DNA of 64,000 nt. Source: Clostridia bacterium. GTDB lineage: Bacteria; Bacillota; Clostridia; Oscillospirales; CAG-272. The translations under genes were made by a program, and so were the position numbers. Below the pieces are notes generated by a model that was not told where the DNA came from, did no database searches, and saw only the letters and a program-made list of their open reading frames with translations. The stretch spans positions 5,856 through 69,855 of the forward strand of contig JAFQRL010000004.1 in NCBI GenBank assembly GCA_017410065.1, written 5' to 3'. Of the stretch, positions 842 to 24,161 are shown piece by piece (positions within the stretch are counted from its first letter, which is position 1; every line of letters begins with the position of its first letter).

Positions 842-2181
842 TATTCAGCCATAGCCTTGCCCGAGAGAAGCTTCTTTTTATCCTCCCTTGAAAGCCCTCC
901 CGAAAGAACCTTTGAGAGCACCACCGCAAGCACCTCGCCGACGAGCATTATTACAGCACCTGCCAGAGCCCAGCCGAGAGAGCCGCTATTGAAGCTGCCC
1001 TCGGGAAGGAAGCTTGCGTCTCCTGCGGGAGCGGTTGACGTTGGATCAAGATAAAGATGCATCGAGCCCGATACCGCAAAGGGAGCCACACAGCAGATCA
1101 CCGCAAAAAGAGCAAGGTGAGCATGGCCGCTATGAGCCGCGCCTGCGAGAGAGATACGGCGCGAGAGCTTATCTCCAAGGCTCACGGCTATCGCGGCAAA
1201 AAGCGCGTATGCTATCATAAGCACGCCTGTGAATATATACGAATTATTGATGAGGAGAGATGGGTCGTTTGCCGATATAGACTCTATTTTTGCAAGATAG
1301 GGTATAAAGTCTCCCGAAACAAATGCCGAAAGTGCCCCTGTGCCAAGAAGATTAAAGAAGAAGATAAAGAAGCCCGCAAGCGAGATGAGAGCACTACCCT
1401 GAACGATATTAAGATAAATAAGCTCGTCCTTATTATATTCGCGTGCTCTTGTGATAAGCGCGTTGATCAGCGCACAGCAAAGAGCGAATATCAGCACAGC
1501 CACAGCACCGAAGCCTGCGGAGATCCCAGGGCAGACGGATTGGATTAGCATCAGGAAAAGGGGAATCAATATGATCGATTGGAGACTTCCGCCGAGCTTG
1601 CCCGCGATCGCCTCGGGGGTGCGTATGCCTCTTATGAAGGTGATCACCGCAAGGATCGCCTTAACGAGCAGTATCACGGGAAGCGCCAATGCAAGAATAA
1701 GCATAATTATAAAGCCGAGAAGACTGATTATAACCTTGAATATGACCGCGAACATATTTTCGCCGCCCGAGCCCTCTCTGATGCGGGAAATTATGGCCGT
1801 AATCGCGCTGACGGTTATGAGCGAGCGTTTGCCCGACTCGGTTTCAAGCTCGGCTCTCAGGGCATCCGCCGCCTCAAGGGAATTATTCGCCGCGGCACCG
1901 GATATTCTGAAATACATACTGAAGGAGCTTATGATGCCGATAGGAGATACGGATATTTTACCGCCTATCTCGGAGCTCTCGATGGGAGAGCCTGTTACCT
2001 CCTCCACGGTCTCCATAATGCTTTCCTTAAGAGTGCCGCCGCTCTCGCCGAAGCCCACGGCATCCGTATTAATATTAATAAGAGGAAGCATACTGAAAAC
2101 GAAGGAAAGGAGAATAAGGAGCGCGCTGACCGTCGCCTGTATCGCCGCTACCCTTCTTTTTGATATATTTTTGATCAACAT
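826..2181 (-). CDS. polytopic membrane protein, function unknown
   Basis: 451-aa ORF with many long hydrophobic segments. No motif recognised. Confidence 0.6.
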   Translation of the reverse strand: MLIKNISKRRVAAIQATVSALLILLSFVFSMLPLININTDAVGFGESGGTLKESIMETVEEVTGSPIESSEIGGKISVSPIGIISSFSMYFRISGAAANNSLEAADALRAELETESGKRSLITVSAITAIISRIREGSGGENMFAVIFKVIISLLGFIIMLILALALPVILLVKAILAVITFIRGIRTPEAIAGKLGGSLQSIILIPLFLMLIQSVCPGISAGFGAVAVLIFALCCALINALITRAREYNKDELIYLNIVQGSALISLAGFFIFFFNLLGTGALSAFVSGDFIPYLAKIESISANDPSLLINNSYIFTGVLMIAYALFAAIAVSLGDKLSRRISLAGAAHSGHAHLALFAVICCVAPFAVSGSMHLYLDPTSTAPAGDASFLPEGSFNSGSLGWALAGAVIMLVGEVLAVVLSKVLSGGLSREDKKKLLSGKAMAEYMDGE

Positions 2182-2199
2182 TCTTTACTCCGAAACAAA

Positions 2200-2856
2200 T
2201 TACTTTGAGAGTATTTTCGCAAGCTCCCTTTCAAAGAAGGGCATAACTCGCTTCATTCCCTCCACGTTCAGGTGGCAAACGTCACCGGGCACCCAGCAAA
2301 ACTCACGGCGGAATTCGGGGTCACGCATATCGACGAGGGTGGTTTGGGGGTCGGTGGCATCTATGCAGGGCACGCCCATATTTTCGCACACGTCCTTCAT
2401 TGCATCCGTGTATGCGGAGGTGGGAAGACCGATGGCGTTTTCCCTTTGCCCAACGCCCCAGAAGGTGACGCAAACGACTGTCGCCTTGGGGAATCTTTCT
2501 CTGAGACTTTCGATAACCTTTGAGAGCGCACCGCGGAAGGTTGAGATATCGTCACCTATCACGCCGAGGGCAGCCGCCTTATTATAATCGTTTCTGCCTC
2601 CCTCGACCACGATCAGCTCGGGGTCCTCAAGGGTGATATCCGAAAGCCTTGATACGATGGGACGTGCACCGCCCTCGCAAGCAGAAAGAGTGCAACCGTT
2701 TGAGCCGCAGTTTTCACTTATCATTTCATATTTATCCGAAAGAAGAGCTATCCAGGAGTTTTCCTTGCCTATGCCGTGACCGCCGAAAAGGCTATCGCCG
2801 ATAAAGGCGGCGCGCAGACCCTTCAGATTTTCATAATAAACGCTAGAAGCTTCCAT
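2200..2856 (-). CDS. SGNH/GDSL-family hydrolase
   Basis: Block I FIGDSLF, block III GGRNDY, block V DVCHLN (D-x-x-H). Confidence 0.75.
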   Translation of the reverse strand: MEASSVYYENLKGLRAAFIGDSLFGGHGIGKENSWIALLSDKYEMISENCGSNGCTLSACEGGARPIVSRLSDITLEDPELIVVEGGRNDYNKAAALGVIGDDISTFRGALSKVIESLRERFPKATVVCVTFWGVGQRENAIGLPTSAYTDAMKDVCENMGVPCIDATDPQTTLVDMRDPEFRREFCWVPGDVCHLNVEGMKRVMPFFERELAKILSK

Positions 2857-2896
2857 AATATGTACCTTTCAAATTGTTGCTTTTGTTTGTCCGCTT

Positions 2897-3841
2897 TTAT
2901 TTATATTCGTTTTTTTCCTTAAGCACCTTATAGATGGATCTATAAGAGGCAAGCCTGCTCTCGGGTATCCTTCCCTCTGCCGCCGCCTGTGCAACGGCGC
3001 ACTCGTCTGCTCCCTCGCCAACGTGGGCACAGTCTGCGTAGCGGCATTTTCCAACGTAGGGAAGCAGCTCGCGGAAGGTTGGAAGGAGCTCGTCCAGGGA
3101 GAAGAAATCAAACCTTGCGAAGTCCACGAGAGAAAAGCCGGGAGTATCCGCAAGGAAGCCTGCCGAGGCTCCCTCTCCTATATCGAATATCTCAACGTGA
3201 CGGGTGGTGTGCCTGCCTCGCTCGATCTTTCGGGATATCTCGGCGGTTGCCAGAGAGAGCCCTGGGAAAAGCGCGTTCATCAGAGTCGATTTTCCAACGC
3301 CCGAGGCACCCGCGAAGGCGGCGGTCTTACCGTCCCTTATATGCTCCCTTATGTAATCCGAAAGCGAGGTGAGTCCCTCTCCTCCGACAGACGAGGTTAT
3401 AAAGGCGGGTATGCCCACCTTTTCGTATATATCCCTGTATTCGACCGCCGCGCCGTCCGAAAGATCGGACTTTGTGATAACGACCACGGGCAGTATGGAA
3501 TTATGCTCGGCTATGGCAACAAGCTTATCCACAGTCTCGATAACGGGACTTGGCTTCATAGCGGCAAATACTATAAAAAGATAATCAAGATTTGCAAGAG
3601 GGGGGCGAATTAGGGCGTTTTTTCTTTCCTCGATCTCCGCGATAACTATGCTATCGGGGGTATCCTCATCCACGCTGACCTTAACGTTATCGCCGATGAG
3701 CACCTTGGAATCGTCTCTTTTCAGATTACCCTTGGCGCGACAGGCGAGGCGCGAGAGGCTTCCGTCCTCCTCTATTATCCGCACATCAAAAAGTCCGCCC
3801 AGACCCTTGACGACCTTTCCGCGTTTTTCGATAGCCTGCAT
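2897..3841 (-). CDS. rsgA: ribosome small-subunit-dependent GTPase A
   Basis: N-terminal OB-like segment GKVVKGLGGLFDV, circularly permuted GTPase motifs (VITKSDL before GASGVGKSTLMNAL), C-terminal Cys/His cluster CRYADCAHVGEGADC. Confidence 0.9.
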   Translation of the reverse strand: MQAIEKRGKVVKGLGGLFDVRIIEEDGSLSRLACRAKGNLKRDDSKVLIGDNVKVSVDEDTPDSIVIAEIEERKNALIRPPLANLDYLFIVFAAMKPSPVIETVDKLVAIAEHNSILPVVVITKSDLSDGAAVEYRDIYEKVGIPAFITSSVGGEGLTSLSDYIREHIRDGKTAAFAGASGVGKSTLMNALFPGLSLATAEISRKIERGRHTTRHVEIFDIGEGASAGFLADTPGFSLVDFARFDFFSLDELLPTFRELLPYVGKCRYADCAHVGEGADECAVAQAAAEGRIPESRLASYRSIYKVLKEKNEYK

Positions 3842-3844
3842 TTA

Positions 3845-4180
3845 TTACTCCGAGAGGCACGCGGAGATGCGGCGCTCAATTGTACCGATGCTTTTCTTGA
3901 CGAGCTTATAGTTCTCCTCGGTGCTTTTCCCTTCAAGAAGAAGGACCTTCGATACGAAGGATATCTCCGAGCAGGCATCAAGCGCAAGATTGAGGCGGCG
4001 GACGAGGCTGATCTCGTCTCTCGAATATTTGAGGGAGCTGAGGGCAGATCCCAATGAGATCACAGATGCGAAAAGCTTTTCCTTATAAGGGTCGCCCTGT
4101 ACATCCGAGCCGAAAAGCCTTGATACAAGCACGGCAAACTCTGCCGCATCATCGCGAAGCTGATTTCTGTTTGTTGCCAT
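3845..4180 (-). CDS. small helical hypothetical protein
   Basis: 111-aa ORF tightly packed between rlmN and rsgA, where B. subtilis has prpC-prkC. No motif recognised. Confidence 0.45.
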   Translation of the reverse strand: MATNRNQLRDDAAEFAVLVSRLFGSDVQGDPYKEKLFASVISLGSALSSLKYSRDEISLVRRLNLALDACSEISFVSKVLLLEGKSTEENYKLVKKSIGTIERRISACLSE

Positions 4181-4199
4181 AATTAACTTCTCCTCATTT

Positions 4200-5252
4200 T
4201 TATTTTAGATCGTTATTCATACTTTGACGGCGAAGCTGACCGCAAGCGGCGTTTACGTCGCTGCCGAGCCTTCTTCTCACGGTTGCAACAACTCCGCGCG
4301 CTTCAAGAGCCGCGGCGAAGGCGTTCACCGATTCTGCGGAGCCTCGCTTAAAGCCTGTTTCCTCCACCTCGTTCACTCTGATGAGATTTACGTGCAGAGG
4401 TGCGCCTGTGCCGCGAAAGGCGGAGGTGAGCAGGGTCGCAAGCTCGCTTGCATCCGACTGCGTGTCGTTTTTACCCGAAATAAGGGTGTATTCAAATGAT
4501 ATGCGCCTGCCTGTTTTCTTGTAATAATCAACGCAAGCGGTGAGCAGCTCGGATATATTCCACTTTTTATTAACAGGCATTATTGCCGAGCGCTGCTCGT
4601 CGGTTGCCGCGTGAAGCGAGATCGAAAGAGTGATGGGAAGATCCACCTCGGCAAGCTTATATATCCCGGGCACGACGCCGCAGGTTGAAAGGGATATATG
4701 GCGATAGCCGATGTTGATGCCGTCGGGATGGTTAACGAGCTTCAGGAATTTCACCACGTTATCGAAATTATCAAGAGGCTCACCGATGCCCATCATAACT
4801 ATGTTTGACACCCTCTCGCCCGAATCACGAGCCGCTACCGCGACCTGACCGAGAAGCTCGGAGGGCAGAAGGTCGCGCACCTTGCCGCCGATGGTAGAGG
4901 CACAGAAGCGACAGCCCATATAACAGCCCACCTGGCTGGATATGCAAAGCGAATTTCCGTGCTTATATTTCATCAGCACGCTTTCAATGCAGGAGCCGTC
5001 GTGAAGGCGGAATAAGTATTTTACCGTACCGTCTATCTTTGAGACGAGCTTGCGCTCGACCCTTGGAAGCGAATCAAGAGCCTCCTCCCGAAGTCGGGCG
5101 CGAAGCGGCTTTGAAAGCATTGTGAGCTCCTCTATAAGCGAGCCGATATTAAGCCTCGGAAAGACCTGCTTTGCGCGGAATTTTGGCTCGCCGAGCGAGA
5201 GGAAATACTCCTCCAGCTCCTCGGGGAGCATAGAATAAATATCGGTTTTCAT
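4200..5252 (-). CDS. rlmN: 23S rRNA/tRNA adenine-C2 methyltransferase RlmN (radical SAM)
   Basis: CxxxCxxC radical-SAM motif in SSQVGCYMGCRFCAS, plus MGIGEPL. The likely start is MKTDIY at 5252, which overlaps the rsmB stop by 1 nt (TAATG). The ORF-track start at 5291 is probably too long. Confidence 0.9.
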   Translation of the reverse strand: MKTDIYSMLPEELEEYFLSLGEPKFRAKQVFPRLNIGSLIEELTMLSKPLRARLREEALDSLPRVERKLVSKIDGTVKYLFRLHDGSCIESVLMKYKHGNSLCISSQVGCYMGCRFCASTIGGKVRDLLPSELLGQVAVAARDSGERVSNIVMMGIGEPLDNFDNVVKFLKLVNHPDGINIGYRHISLSTCGVVPGIYKLAEVDLPITLSISLHAATDEQRSAIMPVNKKWNISELLTACVDYYKKTGRRISFEYTLISGKNDTQSDASELATLLTSAFRGTGAPLHVNLIRVNEVEETGFKRGSAESVNAFAAALEARGVVATVRRRLGSDVNAACGQLRRQSMNNDLK

Positions 5253-6562
5253 TATTTTCTCCTGATCCTTGCAACGAAGAAGCCGTCGCATCCGTGGCGC
5301 GAGGGCACGAGAGTGAGTCTTCCGCCCTCGGAGGCAAAGCCCGCCGCGGTGAAGTCTATTGGCTCAAACTCGGGATTTGCTTCAAGGAATTTATCTATTA
5401 CCTCGCCGTTTTCCGAAGGAAGAAGGGTGCAGGTCGAATAGGTGAGAATACCGCCCGACCTGAGGTATTTCGCGCTTTCGGTGAGGATATTCAGCTGAAG
5501 CTCGGGAAGAGCCTCAACGCCCTCGGGAGCCTTATAGCGGAGGTCTGCCTTTTTGCCGAGCACTCCAAGCCCCGAGCAGGGAACGTCGCAGATAACTCTG
5601 TCTGCCTTACCGATAAGAGTGGGGTCTGGCTCAAGGGCATCTCTTTGCTCTGCCTTGACAGAGGAAAGCCCAAGTCTCTCGGCACCTCCTGTGATAAGCG
5701 AAAGCTTTGCGGAGTGAAGATCAAAGGAGCGGATATCCGCAAGGTCCTTCGTGAGGACCGCCGTGGCAAAGCTCTTTCCGCCGGGGCAAGCGCAGGTGTC
5801 CGCAATAAGCTCGCCCTCCTTTGCGCCGAGAGCTATCGCAGAAATGAGCGAGGCTCTGTCCTGCACGAAGAAGTGACCCTCGGAGAAGCCCGAAAGTCGC
5901 TCGGGATTTACCGAGCGGTGAAGCCTCACGGAGGGAGTGCCCTCGAGCACCTCGGGCTCATAGCCCTCGCCGCGCAGCCTTGCGACAAAGTCTTCGACCG
6001 AAATTTTACACGTGTTTACGGTGAGATCGGTATATTTTTCTTCGTTATAGAATTTGAGTATTTTCTCGGTCTCCTCCCTGCCAAAGAGTCCGTCAAGAGC
6101 CTTGACTATCCAAAGGGGGAAGGAATATTTCACCGAGAGGTATCGTTTATAGTTTTTCTCCTCGGAGGGCATAGGGAGAGAGTCCTTCTCGCGGGCTATG
6201 CGACGAAGCACGCCGTTGACGAAGGAACGCTCGCCCGAGCTTCTTGCCAGCTTCACCGTTTCGTTTACTGCGGCGAAATCGGGTATGGAGCTCATATCAA
6301 GTATCTGGCAGATACCGAGGCGAAGGATATTTTTCGTGTGAGGGTCTATCTTCTCGGACTCGCGGGCGGAAATCGCGGAGATATAATAATCGTAGGATAG
6401 CTTTCTTTCCGCGGTGGTATAGAGAAGGGCTGTCAGCTGTGCGCGCTCCTCGGGCTTCAGGCGATCTGCCTTATGGGAGGAAAGCGCAAGATTTACGTAC
6501 TTGCCCGCCGCCTCCTGCTCGGAGAGGATATCCAGGGCAATTTTTCTTATGTCTGTTTTCAA
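5252..6562 (-). CDS. rsmB: 16S rRNA m5C967 methyltransferase RsmB (NusB-like N-domain)
   Basis: DTCACPGGKS SAM motif, DVPCSGLG catalytic motif, TCT(L) second cysteine. Sits in the fmt-rsmB synteny. Confidence 0.9.
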   Translation of the reverse strand: MKTDIRKIALDILSEQEAAGKYVNLALSSHKADRLKPEERAQLTALLYTTAERKLSYDYYISAISARESEKIDPHTKNILRLGICQILDMSSIPDFAAVNETVKLARSSGERSFVNGVLRRIAREKDSLPMPSEEKNYKRYLSVKYSFPLWIVKALDGLFGREETEKILKFYNEEKYTDLTVNTCKISVEDFVARLRGEGYEPEVLEGTPSVRLHRSVNPERLSGFSEGHFFVQDRASLISAIALGAKEGELIADTCACPGGKSFATAVLTKDLADIRSFDLHSAKLSLITGGAERLGLSSVKAEQRDALEPDPTLIGKADRVICDVPCSGLGVLGKKADLRYKAPEGVEALPELQLNILTESAKYLRSGGILTYSTCTLLPSENGEVIDKFLEANPEFEPIDFTAAGFASEGGRLTLVPSRHGCDGFFVARIRRK

Positions 6563-7278
6563 CGTCTGTTACCTCTGCCTGCAATTCTGACGACGTAGAG
6601 AAGCAATCTTAAGAGATGGATCGCCGACACCGCAAGCGCCGCAACGTAGGTGAGAGCCGCCGCCGTGAGCACTCTGCGAGAGCCGCGAAGCTCGTCGGGA
6701 GCAAACCAGCCCGACGAACCGAGAGCCGCCATAGCTCGCCTTGATGCATCAAACTCGCAAGGGAGCGTGACAAGCTCAAAGAGGGTGGCAAGAGCGAAAA
6801 GAGCAATTCCGCCGATGGCAACGTAGAAGCCGATGACCGTGTTACCGAGAATCATTATAGCAATGCCCGCCATAAGAAGAATCCAGGTAAACCTTGAGGA
6901 AAGGCTCGCCGCGGGAACAAGAGCCGAGCGGAGCTTAACAGGAAAATAGCCTCTTGCGTACTGCACCGCGTGACCCGCCTCGTGCGCCGCCACGCCGACA
7001 GCCGCCGCGGAGGTGCTTTGATAAACCGTGTCCGAAAGCCTGAGGACCTTCGAGCGGGGGTCGTAATGGTCTGTGAGCGAGCCGCTGACTCTTTCTATGC
7101 GCACGTCGAATATTCCGTTTGATCTGAGGATCATTTCGGCGACCTCATAAGCCGTTCTGCCCGAGCGGGTCGGCACTCGGGAATATTTATTAAAGGTGGT
7201 CTTAACCTTGATCTGCGCCGCGACAGCAAGCAGCATTGCGGCTATTGCGGCAATATATAAAACGAGCTCTGCACCCAT
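6559..7278 (-). CDS. membrane-anchored zinc metallopeptidase (Zn_peptidase_2-like)
   Basis: HYDPRSKVLRLSDTVYQSTSAAAVGVAAHEAGHAVQ contains HExxH. Has an N-terminal TM segment and C-terminal TM segments. Confidence 0.7.
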   Translation of the reverse strand: MGAELVLYIAAIAAMLLAVAAQIKVKTTFNKYSRVPTRSGRTAYEVAEMILRSNGIFDVRIERVSGSLTDHYDPRSKVLRLSDTVYQSTSAAAVGVAAHEAGHAVQYARGYFPVKLRSALVPAASLSSRFTWILLMAGIAIMILGNTVIGFYVAIGGIALFALATLFELVTLPCEFDASRRAMAALGSSGWFAPDELRGSRRVLTAAALTYVAALAVSAIHLLRLLLYVVRIAGRGNRR

Positions 7279-16709: not shown

Positions 16710-17111
16710 CTACCCAAGCCAGAACACGAAGTTATCACCGCCGCCGTCGGTCGGGGTGATAAGTCGCGGGCTTCTCTCCCGTCTTACTGTGAGTGTGGTG
16801 ATCTCGGTGATTCCGCCCGTCTCTCGCCACTCTTCAAGATGCTTATCAAGGCTTACTGTGATACTGTCTTCGGTTATCGCCGTCACGGTGATGCTCACAA
16901 AATACGAGCCGTTTGCTCTGCCCGCAGGCAGGTCGTAGACCTCACCTACCTCAGGATCATCGTAGTAGACCAGGTACGGCTCGGAGCCTTCACAGCCCGA
17001 GATATGAGTGACCTCCACCCAAAGTCCAAGGGTCTTCCCTTCCTCTTTTACGCAAGAAAAAAGATTAAAGAATATTAGCGGAATTGTCAGTAAGAGAAAC
17101 AGCTTTTTCAT
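16710..17111 (-). CDS. small lipoprotein, function unknown
   Basis: MKKLFLLLTIPLIFFNLFSC signal peptide with a lipobox-like cysteine. AAAGGAG RBS before ATG 17111. Confidence 0.6.
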   Translation of the reverse strand: MKKLFLLLTIPLIFFNLFSCVKEEGKTLGLWVEVTHISGCEGSEPYLVYYDDPEVGEVYDLPAGRANGSYFVSITVTAITEDSITVSLDKHLEEWRETGGITEITTLTVRRERSPRLITPTDGGGDNFVFWLG

Positions 17112-17267
17112 TTTTCGTCTCCTTTTTGTGTTATTTCTTTCTACTTCAATACACGCAAAATAACGAATCAAGGTCACGGCTTTATCGTTTTTTCGTGCGA
17201 TAGGCGTAATTTGAAACAGGTGAGGAGATGCCGATGAGCTTGGGTTTGGGATTAACCGTATGAAAAA

Positions 17268-17320
17268 TCAAATAAAATACAAAAGAAAGAGCGCACCTCG
17301 GACTTTGCCGAGATGCGCTC
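17268..17320 (-). terminator. intrinsic terminator (GAGCGCA-CTCGG ... CCGAG-TGCGCTC followed by a U-rich run)
   Basis: Minus strand: hairpin followed by TTTCTTTTGTATTTTATTT. Lies between the island and the lipoprotein gene. Confidence 0.65.
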
Positions 17321-17387
17321 TCCGATCGATGATAAATATATCATACGACGGGTTCAACTTTTGACTCCTGCAAAAAAGTTTATCCTA

Positions 17388-17505
17388 TCAAGAACAAAAA
17401 GAAAAGCCGCTACATAACGGCACAATTTACAGATTATATCTGCTTGTAATCGTTATATAGCGACTTAAGTCGTATTTCTTTTAATTGTAAATGTAACGGC
17501 TTTTT
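17388..17505 (-). terminator. long imperfect inverted repeat plus U-run downstream of the GHKL gene
   Basis: Arms AAAAGCCGCTACAT..ATTTACA (17402-17431) and TGTAAATGTAACGGCTTTTT (17486-17505). Inner 12-bp palindrome CGACTTAAGTCG. The minus strand ends in UUUUCUUUUUGUU. Confidence 0.5.
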
Positions 17506-17533: not shown

Positions 17534-19207
17534 TTATGAGCCGGTAGCGGACTTATCGTCAAGTTCCTTTAATAACTGAACCAGTCTGGCTTTAATATTT
17601 TCATACTCTAAAGTTAACTGATTCTTTGCCAAGGGCGTTAATAATGATGTGTGTCCTACTGCATCACGCATAGGCTTGTACACTGTTGCTGATCTGCTTA
17701 ATCCTGCGTTTTTGGGTTTATCAGCGGGAACCTTATCTATAAGATTTGCCAAATGTCCCATGTCAAGATAATAAACATCATCCGCGGATTGGCGAACATC
17801 GTATGAAATATTGGCAGCCCCTTTATTTGTACTTTCTTTTGCTCGCCATTTTTGAGCTTCTTCGGAAGCTTCTGTACTTAAGGGTTCGTGAGAGTAATCA
17901 ATATAGTGGCGCAATAAGTTCTCCGCAATAAAACATTCTGTGTATGACGGAACATTAAATTGAGCTTCTTCGGATAATTGTCTCGCCCATTCTTCAACGA
18001 TGCTTCCTTTACGGATGAATTTGCCGTCTGTTTCCATATCTTTTATTGTAGTGTTGAACAGTTCTTGCGCTTTACGGGCTTTGGGCGTAATTTTTTTGTT
18101 ATCTGGATCTCCGTCGCTTCCATACTTTCTTCTCAATTCATCCCACTCATCAATTATTTTTTTGAATATAGTTTCAAATTCAGAAAGAATCAATTTAAAT
18201 GACGGATCATCGGAAATTATACCCTCTCTACTACTGGTAAAAATATCTTTACCGGTTCCATCATCAAGAAAATCACAATGAATTTGACCATAAACGTAGT
18301 TTTCTACGATTCTGGCGGTGGGGATATGTCTTAAAATATCCCTTTCTCGCAATCTACCATTTACGAACAGATCAATTGTTACTTTTTCTTGTGTTCCTCT
18401 AATTTTTATTTGAGAAGGTTTCTCAACAGACGCTACATATCCCTTTAACTGAATCGGCTTTCTAATGTATTTGCATTCCAAGATATTTTTCATCGCATCA
18501 ACGAATGGATCGCTAATATCGTTAATTCGCCACAGAAATTGAGTCTTTTCGGAGAAATCACTGAGAAGTGACTCATCAATAAGGGTATCGTTTACATAAA
18601 TGTTGAATTTTTTGTCAATTAGAGAAAACCTAAAATATATTGCTATAGCCTTTTTTATGTATTCGATCGTATTACTGATCCCGTCAGAAATGGAGTGAAA
18701 TTCTAACAAAGTTCCCTTTGTAATATCATTCATTAAAGCAAAAGATTTATCATCCAGCGCTTCAAGGCGGTATTCTTGCGCAATCAAATCATCCGTAATG
18801 GCTTCATCTAATTTCGAATTATCAATTATACCGCCAACCACTTCAGAGGTTTGAGTCTTTGTAGCAATACTGACACGTTTTGCACAAGACAGCAACGCCA
18901 ATTTTCCAATGCCTTTTCGTCCTATAAAAGGTCGTCCCAAGAGCGATTTGCTTTCGCCGTTTTTGCGTTTTGAATAACCTATTTTCAGAAATTTATTTTG
19001 GAAATCTTCACTTGTCATACCATTACCATCATCTCGGATTGACATATAATTCGCATCTCGATCAATGATGATATATACGTTGTTGGCATCAGCATCCCAA
19101 GAATTGGAGATAGCTTCGCCCAAAACAGTGATTATATTTCTATAAAGATTTCTTCCCAAATGATTTAGTACGCTAAGCGAAATATTAAAGTTATAGCTGT
19201 TTTGCAT
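17534..19207 (-). CDS. GHKL (MutL/MORC-like, HATPase_c_3-type) ATPase with a C-terminal HEPN-like R-x4-H domain
   Basis: N-box LGEAISNSWDA, G1 box IRDDGNGM, G2 box GRKGIGKLA, MutL-like DLFVNGR in the middle region. C-terminal helical region has RDAVGH (nt 17668-17651) about 45 aa from the end. Confidence 0.65.
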   Translation of the reverse strand: MQNSYNFNISLSVLNHLGRNLYRNIITVLGEAISNSWDADANNVYIIIDRDANYMSIRDDGNGMTSEDFQNKFLKIGYSKRKNGESKSLLGRPFIGRKGIGKLALLSCAKRVSIATKTQTSEVVGGIIDNSKLDEAITDDLIAQEYRLEALDDKSFALMNDITKGTLLEFHSISDGISNTIEYIKKAIAIYFRFSLIDKKFNIYVNDTLIDESLLSDFSEKTQFLWRINDISDPFVDAMKNILECKYIRKPIQLKGYVASVEKPSQIKIRGTQEKVTIDLFVNGRLRERDILRHIPTARIVENYVYGQIHCDFLDDGTGKDIFTSSREGIISDDPSFKLILSEFETIFKKIIDEWDELRRKYGSDGDPDNKKITPKARKAQELFNTTIKDMETDGKFIRKGSIVEEWARQLSEEAQFNVPSYTECFIAENLLRHYIDYSHEPLSTEASEEAQKWRAKESTNKGAANISYDVRQSADDVYYLDMGHLANLIDKVPADKPKNAGLSRSATVYKPMRDAVGHTSLLTPLAKNQLTLEYENIKARLVQLLKELDDKSATGS

Positions 19208-19219
19208 ATCTTACCTCCG

Positions 19220-20269
19220 TTATATTTCAACGTTGTAATCATTTAAATGCTGCGCAATAGTTAATCCAATGACTTCTCCCAATCTAACCGGCACAGCATT
19301 TCCTATATGTCTTGCTATATCACTAAAGACAAACGGAGCGTCGGGATTGATGAAATTATAATCCATTGGGAATGTTTGAAGCAAAGCACCTTCGCGCAAA
19401 GACAATGCTCGATCTTGTTCCGGATGCCCATACCTACCTGTACCATAATTATAAAATTGAGTCGTTATAGTAGGACCGATTTGTTCCCATGTCATTCGAC
19501 CATACACGGAACTATATGTTTGTCCGCTTTCTTTTCGATGGCATGGACATCTAAGATTTTCAGGCCAATCTCGCCAAGTTCCTCCCGGGATGGAAGCTCT
19601 TATTCTTTGCAAATTTCGGTCTGATAATAATGCTGATCGATGCATCGGATCATTGGGATCTACCGCACCTGCTTCAATATGTGGCAAATTCTCAATGTAA
19701 TCACGCACATGTACTTCGTTGCGGTTGTGTGTTGGCTCAATAATGTTTATCGGGCCAAGCAACGAACCAACCAATACGAATCTTCGGCGTGTTTGAGGTA
19801 TTCCGTAATCGGGACAAAAAATAACTTTAGCATCAATGTGATAATTATTTCTTCTCAAAATCTCGAGAAATTGATTATAAACATCAGTCTCACGAATTTG
19901 TGGGACATTCTCCATAGATATTACGGTTGGATGTGTTTCCTCTATTAAGCGTCCAAATTCCAAAAGCAAATCATATTTTTCATCACGTTCATTTGCTTCT
20001 CGAAGCTTAAATCTCATCTGGGAAAAAGGTTGACACGGTGCGCATCCTACTAAAATTCGAGTAGTATCTTCATCGTACTTTTCTATGATTTCTTGTGCTG
20101 TTACTTCTCGAATATTTCGAATATTATAGTCAACCCCATTGTTATGCTCGTATGTAAATTGACAAGTTGGATCAATATCAAAACCAGCAACTACATTCAT
20201 ACCAGCATCTAATAATCCTCTCGTCAAACCTCCGACTCCGCAAAATAAATCAACAATTTGTGTTGGCAT
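19220..20269 (-). CDS. DNA (cytosine-5) methyltransferase (third in operon)
   Basis: Motif I DLFCGVGG, motif IV APCQPFS, motif VI ENV, motif VIII QTRRR, motif X GNAVP. Confidence 0.9.
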   Translation of the reverse strand: MPTQIVDLFCGVGGLTRGLLDAGMNVVAGFDIDPTCQFTYEHNNGVDYNIRNIREVTAQEIIEKYDEDTTRILVGCAPCQPFSQMRFKLREANERDEKYDLLLEFGRLIEETHPTVISMENVPQIRETDVYNQFLEILRRNNYHIDAKVIFCPDYGIPQTRRRFVLVGSLLGPINIIEPTHNRNEVHVRDYIENLPHIEAGAVDPNDPMHRSALLSDRNLQRIRASIPGGTWRDWPENLRCPCHRKESGQTYSSVYGRMTWEQIGPTITTQFYNYGTGRYGHPEQDRALSLREGALLQTFPMDYNFINPDAPFVFSDIARHIGNAVPVRLGEVIGLTIAQHLNDYNVEI

Positions 20270-20273
20270 TTTC

Positions 20274-21215
20274 TCACCTACCTATAATTTTGTCTGCAAT
20301 TTTTCTTATAATGGGTACACACACGGTATTTCCGCACTGTTTATATGCCTTTTCAAGAGAAATCCCCTTAAAAATATATTGCTTTGGAAATCCTTGAAAC
20401 GCAAGGCACTCCATAGGAGTAATCTTGCGAATGCCGAAATTGTCACGGATAATCGGGACACGGTCGTGGTAGGTTCCCATATTAGCTTTCAATGTGGGGC
20501 AAACCTCCCATTTCCGCATTGCCACACCGCTATCGTCGATTCGGTAAATTCCCGTTTTATCGACGATTTTCGCATTAAGCTCCTTAAAATATCGGCTGCT
20601 TGAGCCGTAGTAATAAATATCATCGTGTTTTACGTTGCGGTCAATAATGTCCTCAATCGTTGCTTCCATAGGCACTGCTTTGGGAAAAGCAAAGCAATCA
20701 CAATCCTCTATATTGAGAAACGCTACGATAAAAATCCGTGCGCGATTTTGAGGGATATTAACGTCAGTTGCATTTATCACCTTGCATTTAACGGAATACC
20801 CGAATTGAGCCAAGGTATTATAAATGACAAGAAAAGTCTTGCCGTTATCGTGTTCCATAAGGTTTTGCACATTTTCGAGAAACACCACTCTCGGACGCTT
20901 AACGTCAATGAAGCGAGAAATCTCGAAAAACAGATTTCCGCGCGGATCCTTGAATCCGCGCCGATAGCCCATAATTGAGAACGGTTGACACGGAAATCCT
21001 GCAACAAGAACATCAATATCGGAAAGCATATGCGGATCAATGTCACGTACATCTCCCTCAATAAGTTGCGTATTCGCGAAGTTATGGCGATATGTTTTAC
21101 AACAAGCAGAATCTATGTCATTTGCCCAAGCAATTTCATATCCAGCCTGTTCAAAACCAAGATCAATACCGCCAATTCCCGAAAACAAACTACCTACTTT
21201 CGGTTTGCTCATCAT
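20274..21215 (-). CDS. DNA (cytosine-5) methyltransferase (second in operon)
   Basis: Motif I SLFSGIGG, motif IV GFPCQPFS, motif VI ENV, motif VIII QNRARIF, motif X GNTV. Confidence 0.9.
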   Translation of the reverse strand: MMSKPKVGSLFSGIGGIDLGFEQAGYEIAWANDIDSACCKTYRHNFANTQLIEGDVRDIDPHMLSDIDVLVAGFPCQPFSIMGYRRGFKDPRGNLFFEISRFIDVKRPRVVFLENVQNLMEHDNGKTFLVIYNTLAQFGYSVKCKVINATDVNIPQNRARIFIVAFLNIEDCDCFAFPKAVPMEATIEDIIDRNVKHDDIYYYGSSSRYFKELNAKIVDKTGIYRIDDSGVAMRKWEVCPTLKANMGTYHDRVPIIRDNFGIRKITPMECLAFQGFPKQYIFKGISLEKAYKQCGNTVCVPIIRKIADKIIGR

Positions 21216-22303
21216 TTGATAAATCTGATCTGCAAGTTCAACTTCAAATAATATTTGCCGTTTTCCTTGTAAATGCTACCAAATTGATGTCTGCTCGTGC
21301 TTGCGGTTTCAAACTTGGTGTTCTTTACAAGATAATTCTCAAACTCGTTACGATTGAACAAGTGATAGCAAAGAACCTCTCCATCCTCACGGACGATAAT
21401 ATAACCGCCCGTTGCATCGGCAGTTCCATCCCATGCTCTGGAAGGAAGCATTCCAAGTGCGCTTTCGGTCAAAAACTTCTTGAATTTATACTGATAGAAC
21501 GGATGACCTTTGCTCAGGTTATAGTTCATCGGATTAGCAGCGACGATGGATTCAAGAGCCTTTTCAACAGTGTTAACACCTGTAGAATAATATCCCGTCA
21601 ACATATACGCACAGATTTGAGGAAGATCGCCATCAATCAAAAGCAAGTTGCTCTCAAATGTGTCATTTTCCATACCTGCGTATTTCAAACCGCATCCGGC
21701 ATCTGCGAGGTATGCCATTTTCTGCTTAAACAATTTAGAGCAAGATTCAAATCCAGCCGCAATTGCATCGTTGGGATTACCAGTAATCTCATAGATGAAG
21801 TTAGTGGTTTTGCCTGCATTTACCAGAGTAGAGGCACCACCAAGTCTTGATTTAATACTGAAGCCTTGTACAGACTCATACCCCGTGTTTATATCGTGAA
21901 TTTTGATGCGAATGTCAGCTTTGTCGCTCGATTTTGCCTTTAAAGTGCTTACACTGATTCTATCAAGAAATGCTTCGGTATCAACAGACGCAAAAGACGG
22001 GGCGTTAGCCGCAACGATCTCGTTGTAAAGCTTATCCGCTACACGTGCAAATTCATCGGAAGGAATGTCTATCAATGTTGCTGCGGTTTCGGTATTATAA
22101 ACCGACACTCGACCTGCGTTACGGTCAACACGAAATTCAAGAACACCGATATTCTCGGTTCTCACAATGTTGATGATGTTATAGAATACATCGTCCATTT
22201 TGTTCAAATCGGCATCTGCCGCATAGAGCTTACCGACCTCAAGCAAACGAAGAAATACGTAGATTTCACTCCATTCGCCTTTGTTTCCCGAAAGCTTAGG
22301 CAT
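21212..22303 (-). CDS. type II restriction endonuclease, HpaII-family-like (CCGG-type by family, specificity unverified)
   Basis: N-terminus LSGNKGEWSEIYVFLRLLEVGKLYAAD and the C-terminal LNLQIRF resemble R.HpaII-family proteins, from memory. The start is set at MPKLSG (ATG 22303) behind AAGGAGG and overlaps the upstream methyltransferase by 8 nt. Confidence 0.65.
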   Translation of the reverse strand: MPKLSGNKGEWSEIYVFLRLLEVGKLYAADADLNKMDDVFYNIINIVRTENIGVLEFRVDRNAGRVSVYNTETAATLIDIPSDEFARVADKLYNEIVAANAPSFASVDTEAFLDRISVSTLKAKSSDKADIRIKIHDINTGYESVQGFSIKSRLGGASTLVNAGKTTNFIYEITGNPNDAIAAGFESCSKLFKQKMAYLADAGCGLKYAGMENDTFESNLLLIDGDLPQICAYMLTGYYSTGVNTVEKALESIVAANPMNYNLSKGHPFYQYKFKKFLTESALGMLPSRAWDGTADATGGYIIVREDGEVLCYHLFNRNEFENYLVKNTKFETASTSRHQFGSIYKENGKYYLKLNLQIRFIK

Positions 22304-23300
22304 TATCAAGTACCTCCTTAATTCTTTCCGCAATTGCCGCTATGACATTTACGGTCACACTATTGCCGAACTGCTTATAAAGATGGGTATCTGCAAGAGG
22401 AAGAACGAAACTATCCGGGAATCCCTGCAAACGTGCCCATTCGCGAGGTGTCATTTTACGGATACCTTCTTTATTGATTTTTCCTTTAATGTGAGTGGTG
22501 GGAGCAAGGTTCTTCTGACGCTTATCTACCACAAGATTTCTTTCTCTGCCCATACCACCGCACACGATAGCACCAGCAACATCACTCCAATCGCGGATTT
22601 CGTAACCAAAACCGTTGCCCTTGGATTCGTGACGAGCCTTGTGGCGGCGGAGCGTTTCTACATATACATCACTTAAATAATACTTGGCGGGAACGGGGTT
22701 TTCTTCACGAATATTCCACAAACGCTTTGTATCGTCGGTCATTTCCGGGAAATCAAAGGTTTCGGGCGCAATATCGTTTCTAAACGCTACCACATAAATT
22801 CTTTCTCTATTTTGAGGAACTCCAAAATTCTTACTGTTCAAAACTTGATGAAATACCTTGTACCCGAGATCTTCAAAGGTCTTGCAAATAATCTTAAAGG
22901 TTCTGCCTCTATCGTGGATAACAAGTCCTTTTACGTTTTCGCAGAAGATAACCTTCGGCTTATGATACTCACAAATACGAGCCACATCCATAAAGAGTGT
23001 ACCGCGACACATACCTTTGTAGTTATCTTCAAACCCCATACGCTGTCCGGCAAGGCTGAACGCCTGACAAGGGAATCCCGCGAGGCAAATGTCAAATTCG
23101 GGAACATCCTTCTCATCAATTTTTGTTATATCACCTGCGATTGCAAAATCATCGTTAAAGTTTGCTTTATAGGTTTTCTGTGCATTTTCATCCCATTCGC
23201 ATACGAATACCGTATCAATGTCCTCACCGAAAGCTCTGTCAAAGCCGAGCCGGATGCCTCCGATGCCTGCGAATAAATCTATTGATCTTAACCCATTCAT
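22296..23300 (-). CDS. DNA (cytosine-5) methyltransferase (first in operon, likely cognate of the HpaII-like nuclease)
   Basis: Motif I DLFAGIGG, motif IV GFPCQAFS, motif VI ENV, motif VIII QNRERIY, motif X GNSV. Confidence 0.9.
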   Translation of the reverse strand: MNGLRSIDLFAGIGGIRLGFDRAFGEDIDTVFVCEWDENAQKTYKANFNDDFAIAGDITKIDEKDVPEFDICLAGFPCQAFSLAGQRMGFEDNYKGMCRGTLFMDVARICEYHKPKVIFCENVKGLVIHDRGRTFKIICKTFEDLGYKVFHQVLNSKNFGVPQNRERIYVVAFRNDIAPETFDFPEMTDDTKRLWNIREENPVPAKYYLSDVYVETLRRHKARHESKGNGFGYEIRDWSDVAGAIVCGGMGRERNLVVDKRQKNLAPTTHIKGKINKEGIRKMTPREWARLQGFPDSFVLPLADTHLYKQFGNSVTVNVIAAIAERIKEVLDNA

Positions 23301-23707
23301 TTTGAATGTACCGCCTTTTCAATTATATCTGCGCATTGCGCCGTGTTCTTTTTGATTTCATTGCCCCAAAATCGGATGACCGTCCATCCCTCGGATTCAA
23401 GCTTTGCCGTCACTTCTGCATCACGTTCCATATTTCGTTCGATTTTAGGTATCCAAAACTCTTGATGTGACTTGAAATCTTTCTTTCGTTCTTCCCAATT
23501 GTATCCGTGCCAAAATTCGCTGTCACAAAAGACGGCAATCTTTTTGCCTATAAATACAATATCGGGCTTCCCATGTATGCGGTTCACATTCTTTCTGTAG
23601 CGAATACCGCGCGACCATAGTTCTTTACGCAACAAGACCTCTATCTTTGAATCCTTGTTTTTAACTTGCTGCATATTGTAACTAATCTGCTCTTTTGTCT
23701 TTTGCAT
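23297..23707 (-). CDS. vsr: Vsr-family very-short-patch repair endonuclease (divergent)
   Basis: KIEVLLRKELWSRGIRYRKN, catalytic-Asp context GKPDIVF, FWHG and GWTVIRFW motifs. Overlaps the next methyltransferase by ATGA. Confidence 0.8.
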   Translation of the reverse strand: MQKTKEQISYNMQQVKNKDSKIEVLLRKELWSRGIRYRKNVNRIHGKPDIVFIGKKIAVFCDSEFWHGYNWEERKKDFKSHQEFWIPKIERNMERDAEVTAKLESEGWTVIRFWGNEIKKNTAQCADIIEKAVHSK

Positions 23708-23980: not shown

Positions 23981-24028
23981 TTTAAGAATATTGTCATATT
24001 TCGCGTTAAGAATATTGTCATATTTCGC
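23981..24028. promoter_or_regulatory. two perfect tandem 24-bp copies of TTAAGAATATTGTCATATTTCGCG, candidate operator (C-box-like)
   Basis: Perfect direct repeat abutting the -35. Each unit contains the inverted repeat AATAT-TGTC-ATATT. Confidence 0.55.
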
Positions 24029-24161
24029 GTGGAAAAATACACATCAAAAATGAAGAGTTAAATACAAATTCATTAGCGCCCCTAAAAGCGTATTTGAAAA
24101 GCCTTGTACAACAATACTTTTTATTTTCTATTTTGCCACGTTCTACCCCTGCTTTTGATGT

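Follow-up and report, generated by a model that had tools for sequence, protein, structure and literature searches.

A GHKL-S5 ATPase with a probable HEPN-type C-terminal domain as the partner of a C5-cytosine methylase in a conserved two-gene module

INTRODUCTION

The restriction enzyme R.HgiDII carries an N-terminal GHKL domain, and several GHKL-containing restriction enzymes differ from one another at their C-termini (Orlowski and Bujnicki, PMC2441816). Among the related paraMORC proteins, paraMORC3 carries a nuclease domain of the restriction-endonuclease fold (Iyer et al., PMC2292703). Here, we describe a gene in a 64,000-nucleotide stretch of the genome of a Clostridia bacterium (Oscillospirales, CAG-272; assembly GCA_017410065.1, contig JAFQRL010000004.1, positions 5,856 to 69,855 of the forward strand; the whole stretch is referred to below as the window) that encodes a 557-aa protein and lies directly downstream of a gene for a C5-cytosine DNA methyltransferase. 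With moderate confidence, we read this protein as the effector subunit, in the position of the restriction enzyme (R), of a restriction-modification (R-M)-like module based on a 5-methylcytosine methylase, in which the DNA-nuclease region of a BbrUII/HgiDII-type GHKL-S5 ATPase has been swapped for a HEPN-like ribonuclease (RNase) effector. The domain architecture of the protein, the invariance of both of its active sites, its linkage to the methylase, and the homology of the module to HgiDII-type R-M pairs are established below.

HEPN domains are defined in sequence by an R-x4-6-H motif with N, D, or H following the arginine, together with an upstream E-x3-[KR] element, and in structure by an up-down bundle of four helices, in which an insert separates helix 2 from helix 3 and the motif sits where helix 3 ends or the loop to helix 4 starts (PMC3710099). 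Their chemistry employs the 2'-OH of RNA as the nucleophile and leaves a 2',3'-cyclic phosphate (PMC3710099), and because of this use of the 2'-OH, RNA rather than DNA is the predicted substrate. Fusions of GHKL/paraMORC ATPases to HEPN domains of the Ymh family (PF09509) were described computationally in R-M neighborhoods in 2013 and likened in function to PrrC and RloC (PMC3710099), and R.NmeAIP had been noted as a protein with GHKL and Ymh domains in 2008 (PMC2441816). The idea of such a fusion, which an earlier note made from this DNA alone had put forward, is therefore not new, and the GHKL-HEPN concept itself would not surprise a specialist. In the literature treating HEPN together with GHKL, no experimental study of such fusions was found. 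The Ymh fusions share with the window protein a GHKL/paraMORC ATPase joined to a C-terminal HEPN or HEPN-like domain among R-M genes. The family described here differs from them in its lack of PF09509, its weak leaning to HEPN_Swt1, its engine derived from BbrUII/HgiDII-type enzymes, and its strict two-gene module with neither a deoxyribonuclease (DNase) nor a separate restriction enzyme.

Three other described systems combine similar parts in different ways. PrrC and RloC join a nucleoside triphosphatase (NTPase) to a C-terminal HEPN RNase, are tied genetically to R-M systems, and serve as a suicide or backup arm (PMC3710099). Their ATPase is ABC/Rad50-like, whereas that of the window protein is of the GHKL type. 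PrrC is restrained by the complete type I R-M enzyme of the EcoprrI system; unlike PrrC, the window family has no restriction enzyme in its conserved module. VcSduA, a paraMORC3-type GHKL-Shedu protein of Vibrio cholerae, has been demonstrated by experiment to act against phages, with the ATPase and nuclease residues both needed (PMC12137116). By description, it resembles the window protein in that an N-terminal GHKL ATPase is thought to control a C-terminal effector that cleaves nucleic acid, but this effector is a DNase of the PD-(D/E)xK DUF4263 type, and VcSduA is encoded by a single gene without a methylase. Sacsin unites Hsp90-like GHKL-S5 modules with a C-terminal HEPN of the HEPN-T family, whose motif is lost in humans, in one chain (PMC3710099). 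Weak matches to sacsin ATP-binding models were found for the window protein (NF047352, E 3.6e-4) and for one family member (PF25794), but sacsin is a giant eukaryotic chaperone-like protein, and there is no sign of direct descent for the window family.

RESULTS AND DISCUSSION

A GHKL-S5 ATPase of the BbrUII/HgiDII type makes up the N-terminal two thirds

The principal features, in window coordinates, are as follows.

17534-19207, minus strand: complete gene for the GHKL-S5-HEPN-like protein, 557 aa, ATG start (open reading frame list and translation)
18683-19207, minus strand: GHKL (Bergerat-fold) ATPase domain, residues ~1-175 (Pfam PF13589, Foldseek, conserved catalytic residues)
18206-18682, minus strand: S5-fold transducer (middle) domain, residues ~176-334, limits approximate (hhalign to MutL, Foldseek)
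18002-18205, minus strand: helical linker, residues ~335-402, with helices 335-361 and 375-393 (AlphaFold2 [AF2] secondary structure)
17537-18001, minus strand: all-helical HEPN-like domain, residues 403-557 (AF2 model, weak HEPN_Swt1 matches, conservation)
17909-17923, minus strand: E429-N-L-L-R433, an E-x3-R sequence, the second conserved HEPN element (conserved in 354 of 354 homologs)
17651-17668, minus strand: R514-D-A-V-G-H519, an R-[DN]-x3-H sequence, the predicted RNase catalytic dyad (read in the DNA; conservation)
19220-20269, minus strand: cognate C5-cytosine DNA methyltransferase, 349 aa, directly 5' of the GHKL-HEPN-like gene (Pfam PF00145, E 1.5e-56)

The open reading frame (ORF) is the 557-aa, ATG-initiated frame that the earlier note had described, and the motifs it had picked out are found where it placed them: EAISNSWDA at residues 31-39, DDGNGM at 59-64, GRKGIGKLA at 96-104, DLFVNGR at 279-285, and RDAVGH at 514-519 (nucleotides 17668-17651, read directly). 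Its proposal of a Bergerat-fold ATPase is borne out as well. Pfam HATPase_c_3 (PF13589) matches above its cut-off (E 9.8e-20) and is the sole Pfam match of the protein, and the motifs align with those of GHKL ATPases (motif I, E31/N35/D38; II, D59-G61-G63; III, G96-K102; IV, G165-T166). A full-length AF2 model built on 140 homologs (mean predicted local distance difference test [pLDDT] 86.5, predicted template modeling score [pTM] 0.78) was matched by Foldseek to TRAP1/Hsp90 at E values down to 8e-13 and to the ATPase modules of MORC2, MORC3, and MORC4 at E ~1e-10 to 1e-11, in each case over 400-480 aligned columns. E31, N35, D38, D59, K98, and K102 of the GHKL domain, together with R327, are kept in all 354 full-length homologs aligned. 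It is clear from these results that the protein belongs to the GHKL ATPase superfamily, and it has the combination of a GHKL domain and an S5 transducer with a conserved basic residue that characterizes MORC/paraMORC-type proteins. Within paraMORC1-5, the paraMORC3 label would be a provisional one, its only source being the 'ParaMORC3' annotation of a phage record discussed below.

The MutL-like middle region was also recovered. When a profile of 39 diverse family members was aligned by hhalign with Escherichia coli MutL, residues 27-348 fell on MutL 24-332, the GHKL-plus-transducer fragment, with 92% probability and E 6.5e-7, and DLFVNGR fell on the YVNGR of MutL; the transducer domain also holds the invariant R327, and R285 and R287 are invariant or nearly so. 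The likeness to MutL thus comprises a homologous GHKL and transducer fold with the (F/Y)VNGR motif included, but the C-terminal dimerization/endonuclease domain of MutL is missing from the window protein and the genomic context differs. With the MutL model TIGR00585, whose cut-off is 180 bits, the score was 30 bits over residues 27-75 only; judged by these comparisons, the protein is not a MutL.

The closest likeness is to the BbrUII/HgiDII family of restriction enzymes. The NF050001 model of that family matched residues 5-366 on profile positions 1-368 of 659 with 297.7 bits, against a curated cut-off of 550 bits at full length, so that the window protein, which lies below the cut-off and matches with its N-terminal part only, is not a full member. 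In PADLOC, the sole matches were to two type II restriction-enzyme (REase_II) models and were confined to residues 1-360. The likeness to BbrUII/HgiDII-family enzymes stops at about residue 363-366, inside the helical linker; the C-terminal ~290 aa of those enzymes is missing, and a helical HEPN-like domain of ~155 aa stands in its place.

The C-terminal domain follows the HEPN pattern in sequence

The earlier note had read RDAVGH as a HEPN-type motif. A bare R-x4-H is expected by chance, as estimated from residue frequencies, in about one in five stretches of 190 aa, and as a lone motif of this kind is so common, the weight of RDAVGH rests on its conservation. A diverse alignment of 39 sequences (mean column identity 38%) has 29 invariant columns in the whole protein, among them Y422, E429, N430, R433, R514, and H519, and an alignment of the C-terminal region alone has seven, namely Y422, E429, N430, R433, Y480, R514, and H519. 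Among the 354 full-length homologs, which are otherwise as little as ~30% identical, E429, N430, R433, R514, and H519 are kept without exception, and position 515 admits nothing but D (210 sequences) or N (144). In sequence terms, this grammar is that of HEPN domains, with an R-x4-6-H motif containing a polar residue after the arginine and an E-x3-[KR] element upstream.

A separate AF2 model of residues 395-557 (pLDDT 94, pTM 0.85), a fragment that does not contain helix 375-393, is all-helical. It consists of helix 403-439, which holds E429-x3-R433, helix 445-464, an insert at 465-502 with short helices at 477-491, helix 503-518 with R514 near its end, a loop at 519-524 that opens with H519, and helix 525-555, so that the R-x4-H sits where the penultimate helix ends and the loop begins. 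At the level of secondary structure and motif position, the model fits the published description of HEPN domains; for the fold itself, no significant structural match was found (see below). In profile searches, Pfam HEPN_Swt1 (PF18731) was weakly matched by 3 of the 39 diverse members and by 5 of 150 family representatives, with a best E of 6.8e-4, and it is the sole recurrent non-GHKL Pfam family with a plausible link among these 39 and 150 members. The family consensus matched it at E 0.05 and in collinear fashion, with residues 429-532 on profile positions 8-107 of 115. Taken as a whole, we consider it likely that the C-terminal domain is homologous to HEPN.

Searches for other families in this part of the protein returned little. 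For residues ~368-557 of the window protein, Pfam returned nothing when E values up to 1 were allowed, and no sequence relative turned up in the PDB, and no PD-(D/E)xK, HNH, GIY-YIG, or PLD match was found in the protein with Pfam, NCBIfam, or PADLOC. The Ymh family (PF09509) did not match the window C-terminus at E up to 1, nor did it appear in the list of the 25 top families that the 150 representatives hit with E up to 0.1. A tblastn search of plasmids with the C-terminal consensus at E up to 10 returned family members only. The domain is almost exclusive to the GHKL-S5 architecture: phmmer with the C-terminal domain against 1.84 billion representative proteins retrieved 170 clusters. All of the full-length ones measure ~550-610 aa and carry the domain C-terminally, and only one or two have another N-terminus.

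In a subset of members (P0204, P0215, P0235, and P0251; alignment A2, columns ~605-660), an insert inside the HEPN-like domain carries paired cysteines in C-x2-C arrangement, as in 'CSYCKSEK' and 'CPYCKGEQ', and looks like a zinc ribbon; zinc-ribbon inserts are known in the Swt1-like Cxorf38 HEPN family (PMC3710099). One of the 150 representatives, not necessarily one of these four, matches Pfam Zn_ribbon_LapB at E 1.3e-12.

The gene is the partner of its own methylase

The genomic context was examined in 80 related loci from species-level genomes of many phyla, out of 416 matched genomes in all. An ortholog of the 349-aa methylase is present in all 80 and lies directly upstream on the same strand in 79 (E 1e-91 to 1e-246); in the exception, L008, it is within 4 kb of the GHKL-HEPN gene. 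The two genes are closely coupled and diverge in step: in 74 of 76 pairs, no more than 30 nt lies between them, with most pairs overlapping, and the identities of the methylase and of the GHKL protein to the window copies correlate (r = 0.83). When the flanking ORFs were clustered, only the methylase and the GHKL protein (80/80 each) and Vsr (22/80) came up repeatedly; no other conserved nuclease or gene family was found in the flanks of the 80 loci, and HpaII-family enzymes occur in only four. The GHKL-HEPN gene thus holds the R position beside a methylase of its own (19220-20269), the two forming a conserved module, and the adjacent, co-inherited cognate methyltransferase of a type II R-M system is there. 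The settings of the module vary. In Bradyrhizobium, the methylase, the GHKL-HEPN gene, and vsr form a trio amid housekeeping genes; in Paracoccus, the pair is on a 20-kb conjugative plasmid; and in a Clostridia metagenome-assembled genome (MAG), a six-gene island like that of the window stands beside KAP-NTPase, RhuM, and Fic genes.

In the window, a complete HpaII-type R-M system lies nearby, and the earlier note had suggested an abortive-infection-like output attached to an R-M operon. As the methylase accompanies the GHKL-HEPN gene in 80 of 80 loci and HpaII-family enzymes are near it in only 4, the view that it is an appendage to the HpaII system was rejected.

The recurrence of Vsr invites a different explanation, in which the protein would be a MutL-like accessory of very-short-patch repair that aids Vsr on T:G mismatches arising from deaminated 5-methylcytosines of the adjacent methylase. 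The Vsr gene is the immediate downstream neighbor in 15 loci and is found upstream in a further 7, the N-terminal module and the N-terminal fragment of MutL are homologs, and MORC/paraMORC genes have been linked with Dcm and Vsr (PMC2292703). Yet 58 of the 80 loci have no vsr nearby and always have the methylase, the MutL model failed (30 bits against 180) with the MutL C-terminal domain missing, and such a role would leave both the invariant R-[DN]-x3-H site and the spread on plasmids and in defense islands unexplained. We regard it as highly improbable.

The relationship of the module to a described type of R-M system is apparent from the P2-like phage PhiR44_1 (PV340563.1), found by tblastn of phage genomes, which encodes a 652-aa protein annotated 'ParaMORC3' and, next to it, a 349-aa Dcm. 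The former is a full-length NF050001 member (751 bits, positions 1-658) and shares 35% identity with the window protein over residues 5-363 only (BLASTP, E 5e-62), while the latter is 52% identical to the 349-aa window methylase over its full length (E 4e-138). Because both genes match the phage pair, the window module is homologous to HgiDII/BbrUII-type R-M pairs; the two are also alike in consisting of two genes and in being carried on mobile elements. In the C-terminal region of the phage protein, 'IDIAF...IIEMK' resembles a nuclease motif of the D...E-x-K type.

This homology gives substance to another alternative, that the protein is a true DNA restriction endonuclease whose helical C-terminus, of HEPN origin or not, provides DNA recognition and/or cleavage. 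The module would then be an ordinary R-M system of type II-like, ATP-dependent character in which the nuclease fold is new. Such a view would accord with the canonical order of methylase then restriction enzyme, with the genes overlapping or close, with the homology of the N-terminal two thirds to BbrUII/HgiDII restriction enzymes, with REase_II models being the sole PADLOC matches, with the lack of any other conserved nuclease in the module, and with the failure of fold searches to confirm HEPN (see below). We nonetheless consider it unlikely, as the PD-(D/E)xK-like region of the sister enzymes is missing here, the domain is all-helical and without a metal-binding nuclease motif, and the invariant residues obey a HEPN grammar whose known chemistry requires a 2'-OH (PMC3710099).

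At L008, the partner of the methylase ortholog (5830-6888) is another GHKL paralog, of 636 aa (3908-5818), that has a different C-terminal domain, and a HEPN-type member without its own methylase (975-2660) is convergent to that pair within 975-6888; two effector variants may share one methylase there. A TIR-like C-terminus of the 636-aa paralog, suspected from 'VMISHNGDD', was dropped since there was no Pfam TIR match.

A predicted RNase output for an R-M-like module

If the HEPN-like domain is an RNase, the module may be pictured as working in the following way. The methylase would mark a specific site in host DNA, as befits its family, and the GHKL-S5 portion would bind ATP, dimerize via its N-termini, and clamp DNA in the manner of the homologous MutL, MORC, and Hsp90-type ATPases. 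As the linkage to the methylase is obligatory, the trigger would be unmethylated DNA, whether from a phage, a plasmid, or the host itself after loss of the methylase. Closure of the clamp would then pair two HEPN domains to form, as their motifs suggest, an active metal-independent RNase, and the cutting of cellular and/or invader RNA would not restrict DNA but would instead arrest growth or bring about abortive infection. More tentatively, we propose that this would amount to an R-M-like immune module that never cuts DNA, in which a paraMORC-type clamp reads the methylation of a site and switches on a HEPN RNase on unmethylated DNA, and that the module may have originated when the PD-(D/E)xK domain of an HgiDII-type enzyme was swapped while the methylase and ATPase were kept.

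Several results weigh against an RNase effector keyed to methylation. The gene stands exactly where a DNA restriction enzyme would be encoded, its product's nearest relatives are enzymes that cut DNA, and no element that reads DNA sequence or methylation was identified in the protein. As for the site that the methylase modifies, PDB relatives of the enzyme align over the catalytic core only, and no candidate target stood out in a search by palindrome depletion in the window and the 80 loci. GTCGAC, the recognition site of HgiDII and BbrUII, is not specially depleted either in the 64-kb window (5 observed versus 7.3 expected under a Markov model) or in the 987 kb obtained by pooling the 80 loci, where its ratio of 0.61 places it 22nd among 80 palindromes. 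As for the C-terminal domain, no HEPN profile reached its curated cut-off (14.3 bits for the consensus versus 27.5; best member E 6.8e-4), and Foldseek with the 395-557 model found nothing significant in the PDB (best E 1.4) or BFVD (0.65), with a query that is all-helical and perhaps short of a domain helix at 375-393, so that this outcome speaks neither for HEPN nor against it; the paREP1-type HEPN entries 2q00 and 2jpu appeared at E 3.7-5.9 only. The C-terminal profile gave only a chance ferritin match against PDB sequences (E 0.057) and no alignment by hhalign with the canonical HEPN protein RnlA of E. coli, a single distant template that gives the comparison little power. The HEPN-type C-terminus proposed in the earlier note is probable on the strength of its motif grammar, the position of the motif, and the weak HEPN_Swt1 matches, while curated-cut-off matches and significant structural matches did not materialize. 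Of the three findings that the note had named as refuting its reading, two are contradicted by the alignments: R514 and H519 are conserved, being kept along with the GHKL motif residues in 354 of 354 homologs, and the N-terminal motifs do align with GHKL ATPases.

These negative searches also bear on the possibility that the C-terminus is a non-catalytic helical domain for dimerization or nucleic-acid binding, and that the protein as a whole is a MORC-like ATP clamp that compacts or silences unmethylated DNA or blocks its replication. The invariance of R514, H519, E429, and R433, with D or N only at 515 in 354 sequences, is the pattern of a catalytic site and not of an interface, and HEPN families that lose activity also lose the motif (PMC3710099). 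We therefore think such a clamp quite unlikely, even though the full-length model matches DNA-bound MORC2 and other MORC ATPases, the C-terminal domain has no significant structural or sequence match to any enzyme, its long helices hint at a coiled-coil-like dimer interface, and inactive HEPN domains that only bind RNA exist (PMC3710099).

An RNase activity of the HEPN domain would have implications for how R-M systems and abortive infection are related, as the self/non-self logic of R-M, based on methylation, would be wired to an abortive-infection output. Methylation-keyed abortive infection was proposed in 2013 from comparative genomics (PMC3710099), and the two-gene module would be a compact system of this kind. 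The comparison with the sister enzymes also constitutes a natural experiment, in that the methylase and ATPase engine common to both is coupled to a DNase in one group, the BbrUII/HgiDII enzymes, and to a HEPN-like domain in the other.

Size, spread, and variants of the family

The family is large and widespread. Clustered at 90% identity, homologs with the length and architecture of the window protein make up more than 4,600 clusters, and the family occurs in 416 of ~185,000 species genomes, which range from Bacillota, Bacteroidota, Chloroflexota, Actinomycetota, Pseudomonadota, and Planctomycetota to Candidate Phyla Radiation (CPR) bacteria and one archaeal MAG. Genomes name its members only "ATP-binding protein," and no characterized member was found in the literature; defense-system catalogs and genome annotation either miss the family or match it in part as a type II restriction enzyme.

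A few members depart from the common form. P0171 (312 aa) begins with 195 aa of unrelated sequence, followed at residues 196-311 by the latter half of the HEPN-like domain; it could represent an uncommon alternative fusion or a chimera produced in assembly. A member of the set of 150 representatives, not necessarily P0171, matches KaiC/AAA_25/DnaB_C-type ATPase models. In P0124 and P0134, tryptophan stands at many positions where the family has an invariant glycine, as in 'IWRKWIWKLA' for 'IGRKGIGKLA'; these are likely proteins of organisms in which UGA encodes glycine (genetic code 25), read with UGA as tryptophan. The GHKL-HEPN gene is split or truncated at L020 (393 + 126 aa), L031 (374 aa), and L041 (263 + 258 aa), each with an intact methylase, which could reflect decay of a toxic R-like gene or errors of MAG assembly.

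Flanking signals and the low-GC island

Signals in the DNA around the gene are the following.

19214-19218, minus strand: GGAGG ribosome-binding site (Shine-Dalgarno), 6 nt 5' of the ATG at 19207-19205 (sequence read)
17534-17536, minus strand: stop codon of the GHKL-HEPN-like gene, within the gene limits
17286-17421, minus strand: two terminator-like hairpins, 17421-17406 and 17323-17286, 3' of the gene (consensus scan only)

The methylase stop codon (19222-19220) is separated from the ATG of the GHKL-HEPN-like gene by a 12-nt spacer that holds the GGAGG, and the hairpins likely mark the end of the transcription unit. Beyond both hairpins, 3' of the gene, is an ORF of 155 aa (16710-17177, minus strand) with a listed GTG start, although its real start is more probably an ATG near 17111, behind an AAGGAGA site. 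It had no family match in Pfam, NCBIfam, or PADLOC searches and is outside the methylase/GHKL-HEPN module.

The module is part of a low-GC island at ~17.3 to 24.0 kb of the window, with a guanine-plus-cytosine (GC) content of 36-43% compared with ~52% in the flanks. The other genes of the island are listed here.

20274-21215, minus strand: second C5 methylase, 313 aa, between the HpaII enzyme and the GHKL module
21212-22333, minus strand: HpaII-family restriction enzyme (PF09561, E 4e-134)
22296-23300, minus strand: C5 methylase of the HpaII-type system
23297-23707, minus strand: Vsr

The HpaII-type system is complete at 21212-23707 on the minus strand, and the listed TTG start of its restriction enzyme overlaps the methylase by 38 nt. 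The 313-aa C5 methylase has no restriction partner; this arrangement recurs in L001, L004, and L036 and is missing from most loci of the family, and the gene may be an orphan or what is left of some other system. Across the 64 kb of the window, 63 CCGG sites were counted where ~240-290 were expected, a strong depletion. Other short palindromes are likewise very rare by the maximal-order Markov ratio (GGCC 0.17, CATG 0.09, CTAG 0.19; CCGG itself 0.22), and CTGCAG is not present at all, with 12 expected under a Markov model. This scarcity suggests a host lineage long pressed by several R-M systems.

Flanking direct repeats of the island were sought, and none was convincing. In a Bacteroidales MAG (L001), all six island genes are present at 86-89% nucleotide identity, with a divergent HpaII-family gene and unrelated flanks; as the genes are shared while the HpaII-family gene diverges and the flanks differ, the island is mosaic and horizontally mobile. 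The best promoter-like site of the island, at 23975-23947, is upstream of the Vsr gene. Directly 5' of it, at 23982-24029, is a perfect 24-nt tandem duplication, TTAAGAATATTGTCATATTTCGCG, in two copies, which could be an operator or an insertion scar.

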